From Promethearchaeota archaeon (GTDB lineage Archaea > Asgardarchaeota > Lokiarchaeia > Sigyniarchaeales > SOKP01), in the NCBI GenBank assembly GCA_048941285.1, contig JBHLNS010000010.1:20177-84176 (forward strand): 64,000 bases of DNA, read 5' to 3'. The notes under the pieces are model-generated. The model made no database searches. It worked only from the letters and a program-made list of their open reading frames with translations, and had not been told where the DNA came from. Positions 2,857-12,066 of this stretch are shown here, piece after piece. Position numbers and translations under genes: made by a program. How positions within the stretch are numbered: position 1 is the first letter of the stretch; every line of letters begins with the position of its first letter.

Positions 2857-3414
2857 TTATTTTAATTTAATGTGAGTATATCCTTTTTGGTTAAGGATTT
2901 CCATTAATAAAACCCCAAATATAGTTTGTACATTTTCTCCTGTTTTTGATGAACATTCAATATAGCCATGAAGTTTATGTAATTCCATCAAATCCATTGC
3001 TTCTTCTTTATTACAGACTCTTTGTTCTTTAAGGTCGAGTTTACTACCAACCATTAAAATAGGAATATTTCTTGATATTTTTCGAACTTCTGGAAGCCAA
3101 TTAATCATATTAACGAGTGTTTCATAATTTGTAAGGTCAAATACGAAAATTCCTCCAGATGATCCTTGAGCATACGCAGGTAATAGGAATTTGAACTTAT
3201 CTTCACCACCAAAATCCCATACTTGGAGTGTTACTCTTCCATTTTCTATATCTAATAACTTAATATGGATAGCTGCTCCTAAAGTCGATTTAATATCATC
3301 AAAAAATTTATTAGTTAGATACCGACTTATGAGAGTAGTTTTCCCAACTCCACTATCCCCAAAAACACAAATTTTGTATGTAAGGTTTAATCCTTCCTCT
3401 TCATTCATGACCAT
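2857..3414 (-). CDS. Ras-superfamily small GTPase (Rab/Ras-like)
   Basis: 185 aa; G1 GDSGVGKT, switch-I Thr in KSTLGA, G3 WDFGGE (DxxG), G4 SKLD (NKxD variant), G5 CSSK (SAK-like). Confidence 0.85.
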   Translation of the reverse strand: MVMNEEEGLNLTYKICVFGDSGVGKTTLISRYLTNKFFDDIKSTLGAAIHIKLLDIENGRVTLQVWDFGGEDKFKFLLPAYAQGSSGGIFVFDLTNYETLVNMINWLPEVRKISRNIPILMVGSKLDLKEQRVCNKEEAMDLMELHKLHGYIECSSKTGENVQTIFGVLLMEILNQKGYTHIKLK

Positions 3415-3692: not shown

Positions 3693-4637
3693 TTAAGACT
3701 CTGCTCCTTTTTTAAATTCAAAGGAAATTATTGCCGTGTCTTTTATTCCTAATTTCGTGCTTAATTTTCTAATATAATTTATCCTCCTTTTTCTTATTAA
3801 ATCATTAAGGATTACAGATGGCACTAAAGAGATTATCAAATAAAGCGGCATTCCCAACCATAATATTAAGCTAGGAATATTAAAAATATTTCCAGGTAAT
3901 CCATAATTAGCAGTAAATCTGGTTATAAAATCATTTACTGTCAAGATGTACGTAAGAATAGCACCAATGCCTGCATAACTTCTAAGAATTGTTTGAAACC
4001 ATTCACCTATAGACTTTAGGACAATTGGTTCAGTAGAATTCTCAATTTTATCTTTGTTGGAGTATATTATTCCTGAGTCTCTCAAGAACCAAACAGAAGA
4101 GAAGAACATTGTTGCTAAACCAAAAGTTAACATTAATAATATGGTTTCCGCAAAAAATCTTGTTAGCATTGGGATTCTAGAAACATTATCAAAAATATTT
4201 GTTATATCTGCTGATAATATGAATTCAACTATATTAGGAGTAAAAAGAATAGAAGATAAATTAATTGCCATTAACACTGGAAAAAAACCTTGAGAAAACA
4301 GGAGTATTTTTTCGTTACGTTTTTCTAACTGTATTCCATAATGCATTCTTGAGCCAAAAAACTTTTTATGCAAGAATAAAATAATAGGACTTATAAGATA
4401 GCCTCCAATAAGTAGGCCTATTAAAGCAGAAAGAGGAAGTATAATAATGAATATAAATCCAAGTTCTAAAAGTACATCATCTAAAGGTATAAAACGAGAT
4501 AGATCAATTGGAATCGCTGGTCTAAAGAACATTTCTAAAATAATTATTATAATTATCCAAAAAACGAAATAAATACAATATAATATTATTAGCTTTTTAT
4601 ACTTGGAAATATTCATGAGAGTGAAAGTCTTGGACAA
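3693..4637 (-). CDS. polytopic membrane protein, function unknown
   Basis: 314 aa, multiple long hydrophobic segments; no recognisable catalytic motif. Confidence 0.55.
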   Translation of the reverse strand: MSKTFTLMNISKYKKLIILYCIYFVFWIIIIIILEMFFRPAIPIDLSRFIPLDDVLLELGFIFIIILPLSALIGLLIGGYLISPIILFLHKKFFGSRMHYGIQLEKRNEKILLFSQGFFPVLMAINLSSILFTPNIVEFILSADITNIFDNVSRIPMLTRFFAETILLMLTFGLATMFFSSVWFLRDSGIIYSNKDKIENSTEPIVLKSIGEWFQTILRSYAGIGAILTYILTVNDFITRFTANYGLPGNIFNIPSLILWLGMPLYLIISLVPSVILNDLIRKRRINYIRKLSTKLGIKDTAIISFEFKKGAES

Positions 4638-4688: not shown

Positions 4689-5420
4689 TCACTTTGAGTT
4701 AAGCAACTTATTTTTTTTCCACCAATAAGGAATATCAAAAGGAGTTAATATTTTATCATTATAGAGTAATATTTTATCCTCTATAAAAGAAAATGCAAAA
4801 CCCCCAAGATAATTTATCCACTTTTTACTTGGAGGTATTCCAAACCAACCAAATCTCAATGCCAATAAATGTAAGTCATGGGTTACATGAATATCCAAAG
4901 TCTTTTCAGGAGCTTTTTCAACATTCTCCCACATTATATCTGCTGCTTTTTGAGAATATTCAATTAAAGGGGTCCAAAGTTTAGGGGAATAAAGACCTGC
5001 ACTCCAACGGTTGAAAATCTTAAATATATCGTATTTTTTGTTCTCTTCTAAAAAAAGTTCTAAATTAATACCTATATGATATAAAGGGAGTAAGTCTCCT
5101 TTCAAAACGACATCACCTCCAATTTCTTTAAAACCATTGAAAATGTCTTCAGCAGTATCCTTGCATCTACCAGCTTTACTGTGAAATAAGCGAATTCGTT
5201 TATCTTTTGGTAAATTTTTACCAAAAAAATTAGCTATTTTTCTTCCTTCAGGAGTTAAGCTTAAATCTGCGTCTACATCGAAAATCTCAGGTTCATTTCT
5301 TTGAGAATGTCTTAAAAGAAGAGTTATTTTTGAATCATTTGGAAATTTCTTAAGACCTTCAATTACTTGTTGTGCCTCTGATGACCACTCAGCTTCCTTC
5401 CAGATTTTATCGATATCCAT
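4689..5420 (-). CDS. histidine phosphatase family protein (phosphoglycerate-mutase-like)
   Basis: LLLRHSQR (RHG-type catalytic motif) near the N-terminus and a second His in HVTHDLHL. Confidence 0.7.
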   Translation of the reverse strand: MDIDKIWKEAEWSSEAQQVIEGLKKFPNDSKITLLLRHSQRNEPEIFDVDADLSLTPEGRKIANFFGKNLPKDKRIRLFHSKAGRCKDTAEDIFNGFKEIGGDVVLKGDLLPLYHIGINLELFLEENKKYDIFKIFNRWSAGLYSPKLWTPLIEYSQKAADIMWENVEKAPEKTLDIHVTHDLHLLALRFGWFGIPPSKKWINYLGGFAFSFIEDKILLYNDKILTPFDIPYWWKKNKLLNSK

Positions 5421-5504: not shown

Positions 5505-5840
5505 TTATTTATCGCTTAATCCAGTTAATACTTGTTCCATTTTTTTGCGATAAATATCAAAAGCCTCCCTGCCTTGTTTACTTAGTTTCAAGATAGTTTG
5601 AGGTTTTTTACCCTTAAACTTTTTCTCTACATTTACATAGCCTACTGATTCAAGCTTGTTTAAATGGGATGATAGATTTCCATCAGTTAGTCCTGTTTGG
5701 TTCCTTAAGAAGACGAAATCAGCACTCTCGACAACATATAAATATGACATAATCATCAACCTTGCTGGTTCATGAATAACTTTGTTAATATCAGTGAGAG
5801 GTTGGATAATATCATCTGACTCCGCCTTCTTCTTTGTCAT
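5505..5840 (-). CDS. winged-helix transcriptional regulator (HTH_34/ArsR-like)
   Basis: IHEPARLMIMSYLYVVESADFVFLRNQTGLTDGNLSSHLNKLESVGYVNVEKKFKGKKPQT..LSKQGREAF matches the HTH_34-type wHTH pattern; lies 10 nt downstream of the paralogue array. Confidence 0.75.
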   Translation of the reverse strand: MTKKKAESDDIIQPLTDINKVIHEPARLMIMSYLYVVESADFVFLRNQTGLTDGNLSSHLNKLESVGYVNVEKKFKGKKPQTILKLSKQGREAFDIYRKKMEQVLTGLSDK

Positions 5841-5850
5841 ATAATATCAC

Positions 5851-6486
5851 CTATTTTGGTATGGGAAATTTTTTTAAAAACCGAATAAAATTATATAAAC
5901 CGATAATAATAATTCCAGCACCAATTATACCAAACGTAAGAAGAGTATCTAAGGGAGACCCTACAAGGGGATGAATCAAATATGTTAAAAATAGTCCAAT
6001 TCCTGCAAAAAAAGCGTAATAATACAGTCTAGTGAAATCTAAAAAATAAGCAACGATACATAAAGGAAAAGTGAAAAATCCAATTCCTAATATCAGTGTT
6101 AAAAGAAGTGGTTCAAGTTGTATGTTTCTGAGTAAGCCTGTAAAAGGTAAAATGGCTAAAATTAAATTCACTATGGCGAATAAAGCTAAAAATATTTTGA
6201 GTTTTAGTTGTCTTGACTTGCGTTTTGGGCCAAATTTAACAAATCCGATACGTGGGATTGTGATGAACTTTTTACCTAAATAGAATATTAAAAATGCTAT
6301 GATATTTAACACTAAAGCAGGAATAATCATAATCCAAACTTCAGATAAATCAAAAAGTGAGCCTATTGACGTTCCAATCCCCAAACTTAAAATTATCATG
6401 CCCATAAACAAATCCCATAATCCATCATCAAACACAGACCTATAAGCTTTTTTTTCAAGTGATTTTAGATCAATTTTTTCTGCCAT
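5851..6486 (-). CDS. membrane protein, tandem paralogue 3 of 3 (unknown family)
   Basis: 211 aa; shares an N-terminal IDLKSLEKK...DGLWD motif, a central PRIGFVKFGPKRKSR loop and a C-terminal FIRFLKKFPIPK with the two upstream genes. Confidence 0.65.
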   Translation of the reverse strand: MAEKIDLKSLEKKAYRSVFDDGLWDLFMGMIILSLGIGTSIGSLFDLSEVWIMIIPALVLNIIAFLIFYLGKKFITIPRIGFVKFGPKRKSRQLKLKIFLALFAIVNLILAILPFTGLLRNIQLEPLLLTLILGIGFFTFPLCIVAYFLDFTRLYYYAFFAGIGLFLTYLIHPLVGSPLDTLLTFGIIGAGIIIIGLYNFIRFLKKFPIPK

Positions 6487-6489
6487 ATA

Positions 6490-7128
6490 CTAAGAAATCT
6501 CCTCTTTTGGTAATGGATATTTTTTAAGAAATCGAATAAAAATTACTAAGCCTATGATTAAAATTATACAGCCGATAATCCCATATGATAATAACCATCT
6601 AATTCTATAATCCATGAATGCGTGTAATAAGTCATTAATTAATACTGCTAACCATATAAGCATACCAATAAAATATAGTCGCGAAAACTTCATTAAATAA
6701 GCTATTATGGCGCAAATAGGTATGATAAATAAGCCAATAATTAATATAAAAACTATCCCTTGAACTTGTATTCCAGAACCATTTCCAACAACTAGTAAAG
6801 AAAGAAAGATTATCTGAATTACAAATTGAACCGAAATGACAACAATTAATTTTTTTCCTATTGATTTTAAAGAAGTTCCAGGTTTTGCAATTCCAGTTCG
6901 AGGCTGAATGACATATTTTATGATAAAGATAGGGACCACACATGCAATACTAACAATAATTAGTGGCCATAAAAAATAATTATAAGGTGTAGGTAAACCC
7001 TCACGAAAGATTGGCCCAAAAGACATTCCAGTAACAACAAAACCAAGTATTATATCAAAAAGACCATGTTGATGAGCCGTTTTGAGAACATTTTTCTCTA
7101 TAGTCTTTAAATCAATATTTTTATTCAT
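6490..7128 (-). CDS. membrane protein, tandem paralogue 2 of 3 (unknown family)
   Basis: 212 aa; IDLKTIEKN...HGLFD, PRTGIAKPG loop, FIRFLKKYPLPK; 3-nt gaps to both neighbours. Confidence 0.65.
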   Translation of the reverse strand: MNKNIDLKTIEKNVLKTAHQHGLFDIILGFVVTGMSFGPIFREGLPTPYNYFLWPLIIVSIACVVPIFIIKYVIQPRTGIAKPGTSLKSIGKKLIVVISVQFVIQIIFLSLLVVGNGSGIQVQGIVFILIIGLFIIPICAIIAYLMKFSRLYFIGMLIWLAVLINDLLHAFMDYRIRWLLSYGIIGCIILIIGLVIFIRFLKKYPLPKEEIS

Positions 7129-7131
7129 AAA

Positions 7132-7779
7132 TTAAGGTGTCTCCTGTTTTGATAATGGATATTTCCTGATAAATTTTACTAGAGATACAACCCCAATGAA
7201 GATAATGATACAGCTTACAATTCCGAATGCTGTCAAAGCATCGAATGGTTCTGGGATAATAAAAAAGAATAATTCTGATAGAAAGAAACTTAATCCCACC
7301 AAAATAGCTATAAAATACAATCTAGTATATTGAAGGAAATATGCTGCAAAAGATAATGGAGCTGTTATAAATAGTAATCCTATAATTAATCCCTCTATAT
7401 AACCCGGAAAAATTGATCTCAAGGCTGGATTTACTAATCGTAAAATAAAAAGAATTAAGAGAATAACCGAATTAATAGATAACACTATTATTATTTTTAA
7501 TTTCCGGGACTTTTGTCTAAATCCAAATTTTACAACTCCTAAACGGGGCTGTGTAATAAATTTTTTACCGAGTAAAAATAGAACTAACCCAATTATGATG
7601 AGAATTATTGGTAATAAGCTATCAAAAGGTTCAGGTAATAAATCCCCTAGGGTTATGCCTATACCAATACTTAGAACCAACATACCAAAGTAGATATCTA
7701 GGAGACCGTCCTCAAGGGTAGATTTCCATGTTTTCTTTTCAATTTCCTTTAAATCAATTTTATTTGTTATCTTTCTCAC
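7132..7779 (-). CDS. membrane protein, tandem paralogue 1 of 3 (unknown family)
   Basis: 215 aa; GTG start; IDLKEIEKK...DGLLD, PRLGVVKFGFRQKSRK loop, VKFIRKYPLSK. Confidence 0.6.
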   Translation of the reverse strand: MRKITNKIDLKEIEKKTWKSTLEDGLLDIYFGMLVLSIGIGITLGDLLPEPFDSLLPIILIIIGLVLFLLGKKFITQPRLGVVKFGFRQKSRKLKIIIVLSINSVILLILFILRLVNPALRSIFPGYIEGLIIGLLFITAPLSFAAYFLQYTRLYFIAILVGLSFFLSELFFFIIPEPFDALTAFGIVSCIIIFIGVVSLVKFIRKYPLSKQETP

Positions 7780-7793
7780 CTTGATGTTAAATC

Positions 7794-7889
7794 TTAAAAG
7801 ATACTATTTAAGTACATCATGAGAGCCACCACAAGTATAGAAAAAAATACAATAAATAGTATGATTCTTAAAAGTAATATCTTTTTCAT
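7794..7889 (-). CDS. 31-codon micro-ORF encoding a single-TM peptide (below the ORF-track cutoff)
   Basis: Hand translation: MKKILLLRIILFIVFFSILVVALMMYLNSIF*; GGAGGAG lies 6 nt upstream of the ATG; the stop is 14 nt upstream of the GTG of the first paralogue. Confidence 0.4.
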   Translation of the reverse strand: MKKILLLRIILFIVFFSILVVALMMYLNSIF

Positions 7890-7942
7890 TTATTTCTCCT
7901 CCTTTGATATATTTTTTTTTATTTTTCACTTGATAATTTGTT

Positions 7943-7960
7943 AAAAAAAAAAGAAAAAAA
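7943..7960 (-). terminator. oligo-T tract (T7-C-T10 on the minus strand) after the ABC permease
   Basis: The plus strand reads A10-G-A7, about 20 nt downstream of the permease stop (7982). Oligo-T is the known archaeal termination signal; the AT-rich background lowers specificity. Confidence 0.4.
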
Positions 7961-7981
7961 TGAGATTTATCAGTTATAATT

Positions 7982-9661
7982 TTATTCTAGTTTATTCAAT
8001 TTTTTCATGCCAAAATATAGTAGTGGAATGCTAACCCCCATATTGTAAAGAAATATAGGAACCTGTATTAATAATCTCATAAATTCAATACTCCCTGGTC
8101 CAATGAAGATTAATAATCCTATAGGAAGAAACATTAATGGTTGCATAAGTAACATTGAGGTCATTGCATTTCCACGCATACTTGAATCTTTTTCTCCAAA
8201 AGCGGGAGAAATGCATTGGAGCCCCATTGCTTGACACATCGATATCTGAGCAAATAATAAAAATTCGATAAAGAAAATAACTGTATTTACAATGTCTATA
8301 TTTGAGAATATTGTTAGCATTGTAGTTACAAATATTGCTAAAAATATATTGAAGATTAACATCATTAGCAAATAAGAGTATACTAATGCTTTTATTCCCC
8401 TTGGAGATCGCTTATAGACCCATATTAAATCCTTTGAATCAATAAAGGCAAGATGTCCTATGATTATGCTTCCTATCCCCCCTCCAATAGCGATTAATAG
8501 TGTAGAGACAAATACAATACCAAAGGCATCATCATCCATGCTCGACATAAACCAACTCATAAATCCTAGAAGACCTATAACATAAGCAATCCTCGCAATA
8601 TTGGCCTTTTTCCTGAAAAATCTCTTGCATTGTACAATAATTAAACCACCCCATTTACGACCAGATATTTTCCTTAGAAGCTTATAAAATGGTTTTTCAT
8701 GTTCGATAATTGTAATATTACTCCTTTCGATTCCTACTTCTAAAGTATAAAACGATTCAGCTTTTCTATATGAGAAGTAAATTGTAAGGACTGGGATCCC
8801 AACAGCTAATAGAATGCTTAACCATATATTCAGGATGAACGCACTGAGTAAAACCGGATCTATAGAGTAGAGTATGATATTTGAATACCAAAGAGAAGGA
8901 TAAAATGCTAACCAATTTTTTAATTCAGGATGTTCCAATAAGAAATTAAGGAAAAAAATAACTGCATACATTATGACAACCATTAATATTGTAAAGACCC
9001 ATATTAGGGCTTTTCCTAAATCCCTTGCTTTTTCATTTTTAGAAATTTTATGCTCAAACCAACTAGCAACAATAGACCCTATTAGATTAGCAAAATATAC
9101 ATGTCCAAAGACTGTTCCATATATTATTACATATTGAAACAAAGTTAAATTAATGATAGGATTTATCATTCCCACAATGATTGGAGCAAGTATTAAGATT
9201 GAAATTGAATAGATAGGAGATTTGCCTAAAAATTCGCCTAAGAATATATCCCTTGCTTTAATTGGGGTAGCAAGTAATGTCTCTTTAGAACCAACTTGAT
9301 CTTCTCTATATACATTGTTTAATGGATAAATTACAAGAACTAGGAATAATGTCATCATGAGAGATTCGATGACAAGGGCTACTACAGGTTTAAATACATC
9401 AGAAAATTGAGTCGCTAAAGTTGGCATAAACAAATCGAATAGATATGGAGCTATAATAATAGCCCATATACATAGAAGTGAATATACTCCAATAAAAAAT
9501 GCCCTACGATGATTTCTAACGCTACTTGTTCTTATCCTTATCTCATTCTTAGCCACTATTTTCCATAAATTTCTTTTTTGATTTAAGAACTTAATTAAAT
9601 CTCGCCTTTCAGTTTCAGCTACGGTTTTATCAATTAATTCTTCAGTCTCTAGAACCGTCAT
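7982..9661 (-). CDS. putative ABC transporter permease (large polytopic, ABC-2-like)
   Basis: Start placed at ATG 9661 (MTVLETEE...), 7 nt after the ATPase stop; the track ORF opens at 9760 inside the ATPase gene. It has many TM segments and is tightly linked to the ATPase. Confidence 0.6.
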   Translation of the reverse strand: MTVLETEELIDKTVAETERRDLIKFLNQKRNLWKIVAKNEIRIRTSSVRNHRRAFFIGVYSLLCIWAIIIAPYLFDLFMPTLATQFSDVFKPVVALVIESLMMTLFLVLVIYPLNNVYREDQVGSKETLLATPIKARDIFLGEFLGKSPIYSISILILAPIIVGMINPIINLTLFQYVIIYGTVFGHVYFANLIGSIVASWFEHKISKNEKARDLGKALIWVFTILMVVIMYAVIFFLNFLLEHPELKNWLAFYPSLWYSNIILYSIDPVLLSAFILNIWLSILLAVGIPVLTIYFSYRKAESFYTLEVGIERSNITIIEHEKPFYKLLRKISGRKWGGLIIVQCKRFFRKKANIARIAYVIGLLGFMSWFMSSMDDDAFGIVFVSTLLIAIGGGIGSIIIGHLAFIDSKDLIWVYKRSPRGIKALVYSYLLMMLIFNIFLAIFVTTMLTIFSNIDIVNTVIFFIEFLLFAQISMCQAMGLQCISPAFGEKDSSMRGNAMTSMLLMQPLMFLPIGLLIFIGPGSIEFMRLLIQVPIFLYNMGVSIPLLYFGMKKLNKLE

Positions 9662-9668
9662 TTTAAGA

Positions 9669-10502
9669 TTACCTCGATTTTTTACTTCTCCTTTTCTTTT
9701 TTTTCCTTTGGTCAATTTTCTGATTGATAGAAATATCCTCTCTCCAGCCCAGTAAATCATCTATATGAGAAGCTCCAGTAATTTTTAAATATGCTTCTTC
9801 TAAATCTTTTGCTCCGACAGACTGGATTATTTCTTTTGGAGTGCCTTCAATTTTTATCTGGCCATCAACTATGATTCCAATGATATCGCATAATTCTTCA
9901 GCTGTATCCAGAAGATGGGTGCAAATAAAAATAGTTTTATCTGCTTTCTTAGTGAGTTGAGAAATTAAATTTTTCACCATCCTAGCTGCAGCAGGATCTA
10001 GATTCGATGTAGGCTCATCTAGAAATATTATTTCAGGATCTTGAATCAATGCAGCACATAAACATACTTTTTGTTTCATCCCTCTTGAATAGCTCTCTAA
10101 AAGATCATTTTGTCGACCTTCTAAATTAAATAATTCTATAAGTTCATTAATTCTAGTGGAAATTACATCTCTTGGCAAATAGTATAACTCACCAATAAAT
10201 TCTAAAAATTCTTTTGCAGTGAGTTTAGAATATAAACCAGGAGATTCTGGCAAAAATCCACATATCATTTTGACTTTCTGACTTTCGGTAACAATATCAT
10301 ATCCTCCAACTGAAGCGTTTCCTGAAGTCTTAGATATAATGGCATTAAGAATTCTTACAGTTGTAGTTTTTCCAGCTCCATTTGGCCCTAATAGACCATA
10401 TGTTTTTCCATAAGGAATATTTAGATTTATCTTATTGACAGCAAGAATATTACCAAAGTTCTTAGTAAGATCTTGTGTTTTAATTGCCTGTGCTTTACTC
10501 AA
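9669..10502 (-). CDS. ABC transporter ATP-binding protein
   Basis: Walker A GPNGAGKTT, signature YSRGMKQKV, Walker B IIFLDEPTSNLD; TTG start with GGAGGT 7 nt upstream; unusual Lys/Arg-rich C-terminal tail (RKKKKRRSKKSR). Confidence 0.9.
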   Translation of the reverse strand: MSKAQAIKTQDLTKNFGNILAVNKINLNIPYGKTYGLLGPNGAGKTTTVRILNAIISKTSGNASVGGYDIVTESQKVKMICGFLPESPGLYSKLTAKEFLEFIGELYYLPRDVISTRINELIELFNLEGRQNDLLESYSRGMKQKVCLCAALIQDPEIIFLDEPTSNLDPAAARMVKNLISQLTKKADKTIFICTHLLDTAEELCDIIGIIVDGQIKIEGTPKEIIQSVGAKDLEEAYLKITGASHIDDLLGWREDISINQKIDQRKKKKRRSKKSR

Positions 10503-10734
10503 ATTTTTGTACCTCCATTTTTTTATTTTTATATTTATCTTGATAAGAGATAATAAATATAAGAAAAATAATGAAAAGAAAAGAATCGAGATCCATGTTA
10601 ATACTTATCCATCCTAGGTTTTCTCCTATAACTATCAAGAACTCTAACAGAGCGAAAATAATTCCAACTACGCATACACCAATTTGATTGTCATTTTCCA
10701 AGTTGCTCACCTTGCATGGTTCTGTTGTTTCCAT
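10495..10734 (-). CDS. possible small membrane protein
   Basis: 79-aa ORF with two hydrophobic segments; its 3' end overlaps the ATPase start and carries the ATPase SD; the true start is uncertain. Confidence 0.3.
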   Translation of the reverse strand: METTEPCKVSNLENDNQIGVCVVGIIFALLEFLIVIGENLGWISINMDLDSFLFIIFLIFIISYQDKYKNKKMEVQKFE

Positions 10735-10924
10735 TAGAATCTTTACTTTTTTCTAATCGATATTTAATTAAAAAACTAATATTCATAACTATAGAAATTC
10801 CAGTCAACATCCCCTTAAAAAAGCTGATAACAGATAAATCTGGTAGAAGGATACCCATTATCAGGGCGATTGTTAATGAGGTTGCACCAATTATAAACAT
10901 AGATTCTTTCTTCATATTTAACAT
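10691..10924 (-). CDS. possible small two-TM membrane protein
   Basis: 77 aa, MLNMKKESMFIIGATSLTIALIMGILLP...; first ORF of the minus-strand ABC unit; no family recognised. Confidence 0.4.
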   Translation of the reverse strand: MLNMKKESMFIIGATSLTIALIMGILLPDLSVISFFKGMLTGISIVMNISFLIKYRLEKSKDSNGNNRTMQGEQLGK

Positions 10925-11184
10925 AACCTAAATTGAACTAATTCATAAATTTTAAATTTTCTTAATTTTTTATCCTTAGAGACTTTCTGAAGCCTCAATA
11001 GATTTATATGAAATAAAATATATAAAGCTTTGTATCGCAAAGTAATGTTTACTATAAAGTGTAATTTGTAATAAAATATGCCTTCAGTCCTCTCCGATCT
11101 TAAGAAAAAAAATAGAGAAAATTATAAATAAATCTAAATTTAAAGTGTATAATATTAATAATCTACAAGTGGAAAAATGAAAAA

Positions 11185-12066
11185 ATGACAGCTATTAGAA
11201 AAGAAGGAAAAGTGAATGATGATACGACTCTCATTGACATTAATATGTTTGGAGTTCCTAAAATCACTGCTATTTATCTAATTGAGAGTGGAAAGAAATG
11301 TTTAATTGATGCAGGAACCCATACGGAAGCTCGAAAAATCCTTAGACAATTGAAAGAGTTGAATGCTTTTCCCCCAGATGTAATTGTAATAACTCATTCA
11401 CATTGGGATCATTGTCAAGCCATCCCTTTTTTAAGCCAAAGGGCAAAAAAAGAGGGAAAAGAAATTGAAATATATGCTTCAGCAGAAGCCATCCCAAACT
11501 TAAGGGACCAATCTTACAACGAAATTTTTGGAACAGGACCCTTTAATAATATTGAAGATGATATCATTTCTGTCAAAGAAGGTGATGTTGTAAATTTAGA
11601 TGGGATATCTCTAAAAATTTTTGAGACACCAGGTCATATATTTGATCATATTGCTATTTTAGATGAGAAAAACAAAAATCTCTTCATAGGGGATACGCTT
11701 GGTGATAAAGTCTCAGATATTGTATTTGTCCCTCCATTCATGCCTCCTTATTGGGATAATGAGTCATATCTTAGTACAATTAATAAAGTTAAAAAAATTG
11801 ATTATAAAACAATCAGTTTGGCACATTTTGGATATATTCAAGGAGATGAAGCCAAAACTATTTTAGATGAATCTGTTGATAATTATAGAAAATGGTGGAA
11901 TATTTTTGAAGAAAATACTGAGAAGATTGATGATATCCCATATATAATCGAAAATGTTATACCATCACTGATACCTAAATCATCAATTGATCGATTTCCT
12001 AATAGGCTTGTAGAAGCTATTAGTTTTTGGTTAAGTGAAGGTTTTAAAATCTCGAAAGGTATATGA
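11185..12066 (+). CDS. MBL-fold metallo-hydrolase
   Basis: THSHWDHCQA (HxHxDH), ETPGHIFDH, LAHFG. Confidence 0.8.
   Translation: MTAIRKEGKVNDDTTLIDINMFGVPKITAIYLIESGKKCLIDAGTHTEARKILRQLKELNAFPPDVIVITHSHWDHCQAIPFLSQRAKKEGKEIEIYASAEAIPNLRDQSYNEIFGTGPFNNIEDDIISVKEGDVVNLDGISLKIFETPGHIFDHIAILDEKNKNLFIGDTLGDKVSDIVFVPPFMPPYWDNESYLSTINKVKKIDYKTISLAHFGYIQGDEAKTILDESVDNYRKWWNIFEENTEKIDDIPYIIENVIPSLIPKSSIDRFPNRLVEAISFWLSEGFKISKGI

Follow-up and report, generated by a model that had tools for sequence, protein, structure and literature searches.

What do five tightly packed genes on the minus strand of an Asgard archaeal contig encode, and from where are they controlled? The genes lie in a 64,000-nucleotide stretch of contig JBHLNS010000010.1 (hereafter, the window), which belongs to an AT-rich Asgard metagenome-assembled genome (MAG; Promethearchaeota/Lokiarchaeia; locus tags ACFFA4_05820-05850) with a GC content of about 29-33%. 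The first is a 31-aa micro-open reading frame (micro-ORF; 7889-7794; MKKILLLRIILFIVFFSILVVALMMYLNSIF) with one transmembrane (TM) segment, preceded by GGAGGAG at 7902-7896. Three membrane protein genes follow, which we call M1 (7779-7132, 215 aa, GTG start, ACFFA4_05830), M2 (7128-6490, 212 aa), and M3 (6486-5851, 211 aa), all named "hypothetical protein" in GenBank. The last gene, H (5840-5505, 111 aa), adjoins M3 and encodes a winged-helix regulator presumed to be an autorepressor. The ORF list and the sequence match the preliminary description of the locus in these five genes, their positions, and the gaps of 14, 3, 3, and 10 nt between them. That description had treated them as a self-contained operon with a promoter at 7890-7980. 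We found instead that the sole operator copy of the window lies at 11027-11043, before an ATP-binding cassette (ABC) exporter, and that the genes represent one copy of a very widespread, apparently undescribed membrane protein/HTH_34 gene pair.

The three membrane proteins are paralogues, as had been proposed: they align end to end with 37-43% identity and 48 invariant columns, with M2 being the most divergent copy. The N-terminal motifs IDLK..EK[KN] and [DH]GLxD and the loop motif PRxGx[VA]KxG, pointed out earlier, occur in all three. The C-terminal tail motif is also kept, except for its first position, which is L in the 215-aa copy; the motifs are thus essentially as described. The view that the proteins fall in no named family was borne out as well. 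M1-M3 reach no Pfam, NCBIfam, or PADLOC threshold, a profile search of PDB sequences returned no match, and 66 diverse members of the family (hereafter, M) gave only scattered sub-threshold Pfam matches. The commonest of these, DUF2070 (5 of 66), was rejected at 10.6 bits against a cut-off of 30. An AlphaFold model of M3, based on a 39-sequence alignment (predicted local distance difference test score 79.5, predicted TM-score 0.71), consists of six long helices preceded by a short one at the N terminus. Foldseek searches with this model yielded nothing significant in the PDB (best E = 0.48, TM-score < 0.35) and no match among viral structures. Because no S-component of energy-coupling factor (ECF) transporters was among the PDB matches, this assignment was also dismissed. 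The family is large: a three-sequence profile retrieved 1572 representatives of 50% clusters at E ≤ 1e-3 and 775 at E ≤ 1e-10, and a collection clustered at 90% contained 687 matches.

The membrane proteins are tied to the regulator far beyond the window. A genome scan with one genome per species returned 79 loci, and we scanned 80 loci in total, comprising the window and L001-L080, of which L001 and L013 represent one region of CP070831. We translated every locus in six frames and searched the ORFs with the M profile and, iteratively, for H. A single M gene or a tandem array of up to four directly precedes H on the same strand in 76 of the 80 loci, which come from at least nine phyla of both domains. 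Most are Asgard (Promethearchaeota and MAGs labeled "Hod-," "Hermod-," "Odin-," "Thor-," or Heimdall), while the others belong to Thermoplasmatota, Methanocellales, Micrarchaeota, Chloroflexota/Anaerolineae, Fidelibacterota, Zixibacteria, Sumerlaeota, and one Pseudomonadales MAG. A locus typically has one to three M copies in bacteria and three in Lokiarchaeia. The evolutionary core is the M+H pair; the triplication, the micro-ORF, and the link to an ABC transporter are lineage-specific additions.

The preliminary description had named outcomes that would speak against it, among them a match of the membrane proteins to a known family and a gene order not conserved in related genomes; we found no such match, and the order of M before H is conserved. 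Its search space of archaea and Firmicutes, however, was misplaced, as the relatives occur in Asgard and other archaea, Chloroflexota, Fidelibacterota, Zixibacteria, Sumerlaeota, and Bacteroidota-type systems. Its interpretation holds in part: this is an uncharacterized and conserved system with a probable envelope role, but the unit is larger, and the core (M and H) smaller, than had been stated. Open-access literature on HTH_34, PF13601, IPR027395, and PH1061 contained nothing relevant (subscription journals and supplementary tables were outside its coverage), and open-access literature on CreD together with winged helices does not describe the module. A known functional paradigm, SdpI/SdpR (PMC2910880), fits it.

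Within the Lokiarchaeial array, the three copies are of separate lineages. Average-linkage clustering of 155 full-length M copies placed the M1, M2, and M3 of the window in three separate groups, each consisting almost entirely of copies from the same array position. The triplication is therefore of old date, and each of the subunits has retained its own identity. Two unusual arrangements were also observed. One protein (P0237, 419 aa) consists of two M domains fused in tandem, and one locus (L026, 5632-6181) carries a truncated second M fragment and a second H gene after a normal M-M-M-H array, which may be the remnant of a tandem duplication of the whole module.

The assignment of H to HTH_34 was confirmed by a match to the Pfam family (PF13601) over residues 27-104 with 103.4 bits against a cut-off of 27 (E = 7e-30). 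With its 111 aa, H forms a bare winged helix that lacks cysteines and any further domain. It marginally passes Pfam HTH_5 (ArsR; 23.8 bits vs a cut-off of 22), which shows clan membership only. An ArsR/SmtB metalloregulator was considered and rejected, as NF033788 scored 29.3 bits against a cut-off of 55 and H has no cysteine, two histidines, and no metal motif. The closest solved structure is PH1061 of Pyrococcus horikoshii (PDB 1UB9, E = 4.5e-7). H is much better conserved than M, with a mean pairwise distance of 0.34 as compared to 0.52-0.56. In an alignment of 33 M/H pairs, the recognition-helix residues GNLSxH are invariant, which is consistent with an invariant operator.

A candidate for this operator was first spotted by eye and then by scanning. 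The palindrome ACTTTG-N5-CAAAGT is found 40-100 nt upstream of the first M gene in loci without an ABC transporter. It precedes M in Thermoplasmatota, Methanocellales, Micrarchaeota, Anaerolineae, Chloroflexia, Fidelibacterota, Zixibacteria, the Pseudomonadales MAG, and one ABC-less Asgard locus. Across the window and 79 loci (840,667 nt), 61 sites with at most one mismatch were observed, as compared to a mean of 3.4 and a maximum of 7 in shuffled sequence, and nearly all of the sites lie at the 5′ end of a gene cluster. Seven loci carry two copies spaced by 50-51 nt, about five helical turns. The bacterial sites, read by eye, overlap or directly follow a TTGACA-N17-TATAAT-like promoter (L068, L072, L075, and Thermomicrobium L202), which is the usual geometry for a repressor. 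The archaeal sites adjoin a TATA-like box on its upstream side (L052, L054, L059, and L060).

In the window, a single site with at most one mismatch is present in the 64 kb, the 17-bp palindrome ACTTTGCGATACAAAGC on the minus strand at 11027-11043, which deviates from the consensus at one position. Sites with two mismatches are as frequent as expected by chance (four vs 4.3). The minus strand of this region reads ...ATTACTTTGCGATACAAAGCTTTATATATTTT...; the palindrome lies 103 nt upstream of the ATG at 10924 and is directly followed by the TATA-box-like element TTTATATA (11019-11026), a putative cluster promoter as judged from the sequence. Four minus-strand genes separate these elements from the micro-ORF. 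They encode a small two-TM membrane protein (10691-10924; 77-aa ORF, annotated in GenBank as ACFFA4_05850 with 74 aa and a start at 10915), another small membrane protein (10495-10734; 79-aa ORF, 68 aa in GenBank as ACFFA4_05845), an ABC ATPase of the DrrA/ABC-2 exporter type (9669-10502), and a putative ABC-2-type permease of 559 aa (7982-9661; ACFFA4_05835). The ATPase matches Pfam ABC_tran with 93.4 bits, and its best NCBIfam match is drrA (E = 5.6e-73, below the cut-off of that model). The permease matches ABC2_membrane_3 weakly (17.6 bits vs a cut-off of 31.6, E = 0.0021); its ORF extends up to 9760, but orthologues and GenBank indicate 9661 as the most likely start. Because the operator stands ahead of the small membrane genes and the exporter, the regulated unit probably comprises nine genes rather than five, with the operator placed to govern a cluster from 11043 to 5505.

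This layout is recurrent in Asgard archaea, where neighbor clustering revealed the order small membrane proteins, (CPBP protease), ABC ATPase, permease, two to four M genes, and H. The small membrane proteins have 70-95 aa and form four sequence clusters. In the window, the first of them belongs to a family present in 13 loci (cluster c7), which has no Pfam match, and the second to cluster c18. An Rce1-like/CPBP intramembrane protease of ~380 aa (Pfam E = 6e-19) occurs in 13 Asgard loci, an ABC ATPase upstream of M in at least 31, and the permease family (c1, ~559 aa) in 42, always directly upstream of M. All ABC-linked Asgard loci with enough upstream DNA carry the palindrome 3.2-4.7 kb upstream of M1, ahead of either the CPBP protease gene or the first of the small membrane genes. 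The M-M-M-H array of the complete Asgard genome CP070831 is not accompanied by ABC genes, and no non-Asgard locus has ABC genes upstream of M. Thus, the ABC link is a lineage-specific insertion between the operator and the genes of the proposed sensor and lies outside the core. In one Asgard subclade (L043, L047, L048, L055, and L069), a gene for a longin-domain protein, a eukaryote-like trafficking domain (Pfam Fuz_longin_1, E = 2e-7), immediately precedes the extended cluster, at a distance of about 4-5 kb from M.

The boundary between the permease and the micro-ORF is itself conserved. In 19 loci, the permease stop codon is followed by an oligo-T run and ~45 nt of nearly invariant spacer with a Shine-Dalgarno sequence at its end. 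In the window, the oligo-T run (TTTTTTTCTTTTTTTTTT; 7943-7960, minus strand) is a possible archaeal terminator or attenuator. The spacer (7890-7942, minus strand), which reads …TTATCAA[GT]T[AG]A…AAATAAAAAAAAATA[TA]ATCAAAGGAGGAG… in the alignment of the 19 loci, contains no palindrome in that alignment and may constitute an internal promoter with a 5′ untranslated region.

The operator also leads to systems in which M is replaced. The exact operator variant ACTTTGYAATRCAAAGT was found at 120 loci of metagenome contigs, and 58 of these have H or M nearby (50 H only, 5 M and H, and 3 M only). This is a strong enrichment for a pattern of 15 specified bases, even though many of the matches must be due to chance. 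In 33 of the H-only loci, a membrane protein of ~200 aa, which we call X, is encoded between the operator and H (among L082-L193; for example, L087 5580-6194 and L101 5099-5728). It also occurs in L201 (2401-3000). X starts with an amphipathic helix (L..I..IR..MeRs..F) and contains four or five TM segments. It has no Pfam match, and as its comparison with M by hhalign gave a probability of 0.3%, we treated the two as unrelated. Three examples come from annotated genomes of cultured bacteria. Bacteroides finegoldii shows the order perfect operator, X, H, and creD. Thermomicrobium roseum DSM 5159 (L202, NC_011961.1, 2389-5015) carries a perfect operator overlapping a TTGACA promoter and, behind it, genes for a 188-aa membrane protein that fits neither the M nor the X profile, for H, and for an ABC ATPase and an ABC-2 permease. 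The Chloroflexota genome ZRK35 has a variant palindrome followed by M and H. At least three unrelated small polytopic membrane proteins thus fill the same slot before one conserved regulator and operator.

In a few cases, the membrane partner and the regulator are joined in one polypeptide. P0339 is a fusion of X (E = 3e-28) with H (E = 2e-29), L073 encodes a full M joined to H, and P0337 joins a part of M to H, while P0340 looks frameshifted. A search with the L073 fusion found no second full-length M-H fusion. One further protein, P0338 (380 aa), consists of an HTH_34 domain fused to an ABC ATPase.

About 20 of the X-type loci have a second operator just after the stop codon of H. We counted as downstream genes all same-strand neighbors within 1.5 kb of H, irrespective of a second operator. 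CreD (11 loci) and LytB/IspH (10 loci) recur in X-type loci, the latter behind H or the second operator in L092, L124, L125, L142, L151, L169, L192, L193, and others, while a PAP2 phosphatase, an HMG-CoA synthase, and a B12-radical-SAM enzyme are neighbors of H at single loci. The LytB/IspH and single-locus neighbors suggest a connection with isoprenoid or lipid metabolism. With the ABC-2 exporter and the Asgard CPBP protease included, the outputs are envelope, lipid/isoprenoid, and export functions.

Which part of M might communicate with the regulator? Using the positive-inside rule to assign the cytoplasmic side, we found the highest information content in predicted cytoplasmic segments, namely, the N-terminal helix (2.79 bits), the PRxG loop (2.49 bits), the R153 loop (2.69 bits), and the C-terminal tail (2.33 bits). 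The TM helices come next with 1.5-2.2 bits, the external loops have the least with 0.9-1.1 bits, and the conservation analysis revealed no conserved charged residue in the middle of the membrane. Such a distribution is more in line with a docking surface on the cytoplasmic side than with a pathway for a substrate.

Together, these data lead us to favor, at slightly less than an even chance, a membrane sensor paired with an autorepressor for envelope defense, similar to SdpI/SdpR. In that system of Bacillus subtilis, a membrane protein protects the cell and, on a signal, holds the autorepressor at the membrane, whereby the operon is induced (PMC2910880, citing Ellermeier et al. 2006). By this reading, an H dimer would bind ACTTTG-N5-CAAAGT at 11027-11043, overlapping the B recognition element/TATA region, and would repress the two small membrane proteins, the ABC-2 exporter, the micro-ORF, M1-M3, and H itself. 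Because H has no ligand-binding domain, the signal is proposed to enter through M, which would sense a perturbation of the membrane or envelope or a membrane-active compound. The cytoplasmic face of M (N-terminal helix, PRxGxVKFG loop, R153 loop, and RFLKKYP tail) would then capture H at the membrane, which would derepress the exporter and raise the levels of M, following the logic of SdpI/SdpR. Sequestration of this kind is the most economical mechanism; it would explain the bacterial versions that consist of M and H only, the lack of a ligand domain in H, and the exchange of unrelated membrane partners. The parts of this proposal differ in strength. We are highly confident of the statements on the module, its operator, and its regulon, and H probably acts as a repressor by binding to DNA. 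The capture of H through contact with M is, in comparison, a tentative suggestion. An envelope-stress or immunity function, which had been suggested before, is the most reasonable reading but, like the kind of signal involved, can be put forward with reservation only.

Several observations weigh against this proposal. An archaeal site just upstream of a TATA box can also serve an activator. The oligo-T run and the palindrome-less spacer between the ABC genes and the micro-ORF imply that M and H may have a promoter of their own that is not under operator control; hence, their autoregulation in the window is uncertain, and they could be autoregulated, constitutive, or expressed by read-through. 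The poor conservation of the external loops of M leaves no ligand site apparent. The distances of M1, M2, and M3 correlate with those of H (0.92, 0.93, and 0.84 in a mirror-tree analysis), but shared phylogeny explains this correlation, and thus it carries no information on contact. The fusions, few in number, might be artifacts of assembly or of frameshifts, and the close relatives of the M part of L073 are all unfused 208-aa proteins; we therefore give the fusions little weight. Finally, contact between M and H is inferred.

The last point also favors the main rival explanation, in which H is a conventional local repressor that senses a cytoplasmic ligand or condition by itself, and M is its regulated cargo (a channel, a transporter, or a membrane-protective protein) that never touches H. 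Small ArsR/MarR-like repressors beside membrane cargo are common, H marginally passes HTH_5, and the operator geometry would suit any autorepressor. We nevertheless consider this explanation rather unlikely, as H has neither cysteine nor a metal motif nor an extra domain, M lacks the conserved intramembrane polar residues expected of a transporter, and fusions of membrane partners with H do exist. Moreover, three unrelated membrane families in one slot before a conserved regulator and operator are hard to explain as arbitrary cargo. The position of the ABC ATPase and permease directly upstream of M in 42 Asgard loci raises another explanation, that M proteins are accessory subunits of the transporter, used for substrate capture or resembling S-components, with H regulating the transporter. 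The ABC pair behind H in T. roseum and the HTH_34-ABC ATPase fusion P0338 agree with it. However, M and H occur without ABC genes in all Thermoplasmatota, Methanocellales, and bacterial loci as well as in CP070831, the Foldseek results contain no likeness to ECF S-components or ABC membrane domains, and the ATPase is of the exporter type, all of which make this role improbable.

We regard as very improbable a toxin/antitoxin-like or abortive-infection module with M as a holin-like membrane-damaging toxin kept in check by H. The two-gene autoregulated architecture would suit such a module, and 3 of the 66 M members showed very weak matches to a holin family (E about 0.07). Against this, the PADLOC models of known anti-phage defense systems, a reading that we rejected, detect neither M nor the permease nor the small membrane proteins, viral structures offered no fold match, and tblastn found no M homologue in 72,556 plasmids. 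These are stable chromosomal genes, the triplication, with its positional orthologues, has persisted through deep divergence of the Lokiarchaeia, and the neighbors are housekeeping envelope genes.

The membrane sensor with an autorepressor, as favored here, may also be seen in a broader frame, which we consider doubtful. The pair of a membrane partner and an HTH_34 protein, with its near-universal operator, would represent an ancient, unrecognized class of one-step transmembrane signaling common to Archaea and Bacteria, in which interchangeable membrane partners (M, X, and at least one more family) signal the condition of the membrane or envelope as they titrate a common repressor of envelope-maintenance genes. 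The targets would be CreD, IspH and isoprenoid genes, PAP2, and ABC-2 exporters, and the Lokiarchaeial sensor would have turned into a fixed assembly of three subunits connected to an immunity-like exporter/CPBP cluster.

If the sensor model is true, a role can be assigned to an unnamed membrane family of more than 1500 sequence clusters and to a large branch of HTH_34 regulators, for which a precise operator is supplied. It would also offer a concrete entry point, of which there are few, to the transcriptional regulation and envelope homeostasis of Asgard archaea and link them to tractable bacteria, with the order X-H-creD in Bacteroides and partner-H-ABC in Thermomicrobium. The finding does not contradict current understanding.

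The micro-ORF at the head of the five genes, whose GGAGGAG site had been noted previously, is absent from the GenBank annotation (the tags run from 05830 to 05835) and from the protein collection. About 19 Lokiarchaeial loci, including some with M proteins only about 56-60% identical to those of the window, have an ORF of 31 codons (rarely 32-37) upstream of M1. These relatives share an MKK or MDK start, a hydrophobic core, and a GGAGG site and are typically separated from M1 by 14 nt. Pairwise codon differences at positions 1, 2, and 3 number 738, 348, and 798, with 301 synonymous and 1116 non-synonymous changes. This indicates little constraint on residue identity, so that length and hydrophobicity alone are conserved. 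From the base composition (~8% stop codons per codon), the chance of an open 31-codon frame is estimated at ~7% per locus. Its retention in many loci, together with the ribosome-binding site, argues for a real gene for a single-TM peptide in the Lokiarchaeial clade. The micro-ORF is absent outside this clade, and one subclade has a 140-aa two-TM zinc-ribbon protein instead; thus, it is an accessory element. In L001 (CP070831.1, 6480-6590), the complete Asgard genome without ABC genes, a masked run of N lies just upstream of the micro-ORF.

The cluster is flanked by other genes on both sides. A gene for a metallo-beta-lactamase-fold protein (11185-12066, plus strand) diverges from the intergenic region of 260 nt in which the operator and the TATA box also lie. 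It might share the regulation by the operator, and its neighborhood is not conserved in other loci. Immediately downstream of H, the minus strand encodes a histidine-phosphatase-family protein (4689-5420), a 314-aa membrane protein without a Pfam match (3693-4637), and a Ras/Arf-like small GTPase (2857-3414; Pfam Ras, E = 8e-39). Genes of these three families are again found behind H in related Lokiarchaeial loci, and in L013 and L014 the membrane protein gene is flanked by two GTPase genes. This recurrence could reflect lineage synteny or a pairing of the GTPase with the membrane protein.

How do M and H compare with known systems? PH1061 (1UB9), the nearest solved relative of the HTH_34 protein H, is named "hypothetical protein" in its PDB record, with no assigned function. 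The ArsR/SmtB proteins resemble H as small dimeric repressors of the winged-helix clan with a palindromic operator near the promoter. They differ in that their partner is a metal pump rather than a membrane protein of no named family, and in that H has no cysteine or metal-site motif. In BlaR1/BlaI and MecR1/MecI, a membrane sensor inactivates the winged-helix repressor encoded next to it, and the adjoining genes for a membrane protein and a winged-helix repressor are common to these systems and M/H. A BlaR1-like sensor-protease was rejected for M, as no HExxH motif was found in M1-M3, whose external loops have only 4-9 residues, and there is no extracellular sensor domain; inactivation of H by proteolysis is therefore unlikely. 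The X-type systems share with the CreBC-CreD regulon its inner-membrane envelope-integrity protein, CreD (PMC4689548), which recurs as a target gene behind the H operator. CreBC-CreD is controlled by a two-component system and not by a pair of a membrane partner and H, and the window has no creD.

The closest parallel is SdpI/SdpR. Like M/H, it combines a ~200-aa six-TM membrane protein with a small winged-helix autorepressor in one short autoregulated operon, and M/H shows this architecture through the adjacency of its genes in 76 of the 80 loci and through a palindrome at the promoter in both domains. For both systems, it has been proposed that a conserved, cytoplasm-facing region of the membrane protein retains the repressor, and an ABC exporter is tied to the same defense (yknWXYZ in the case of SdpC). 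The proteins themselves are not homologous: none of the 66 M members or the window paralogues matches the Pfam SdpI family at E ≤ 1, and H is an HTH_34 protein and not of the typical ArsR/HTH_5 kind. The gene order is also reversed, with the membrane protein gene first in M/H, for which no toxin gene is known. In contrast to SdpI/SdpR, M/H occurs in archaea and many bacterial phyla, and sequestration in M/H is a proposal, for which the conserved cytoplasmic face of M and the rare fusions offer indirect support. We propose that M/H works like SdpI/SdpR but is built from different proteins.

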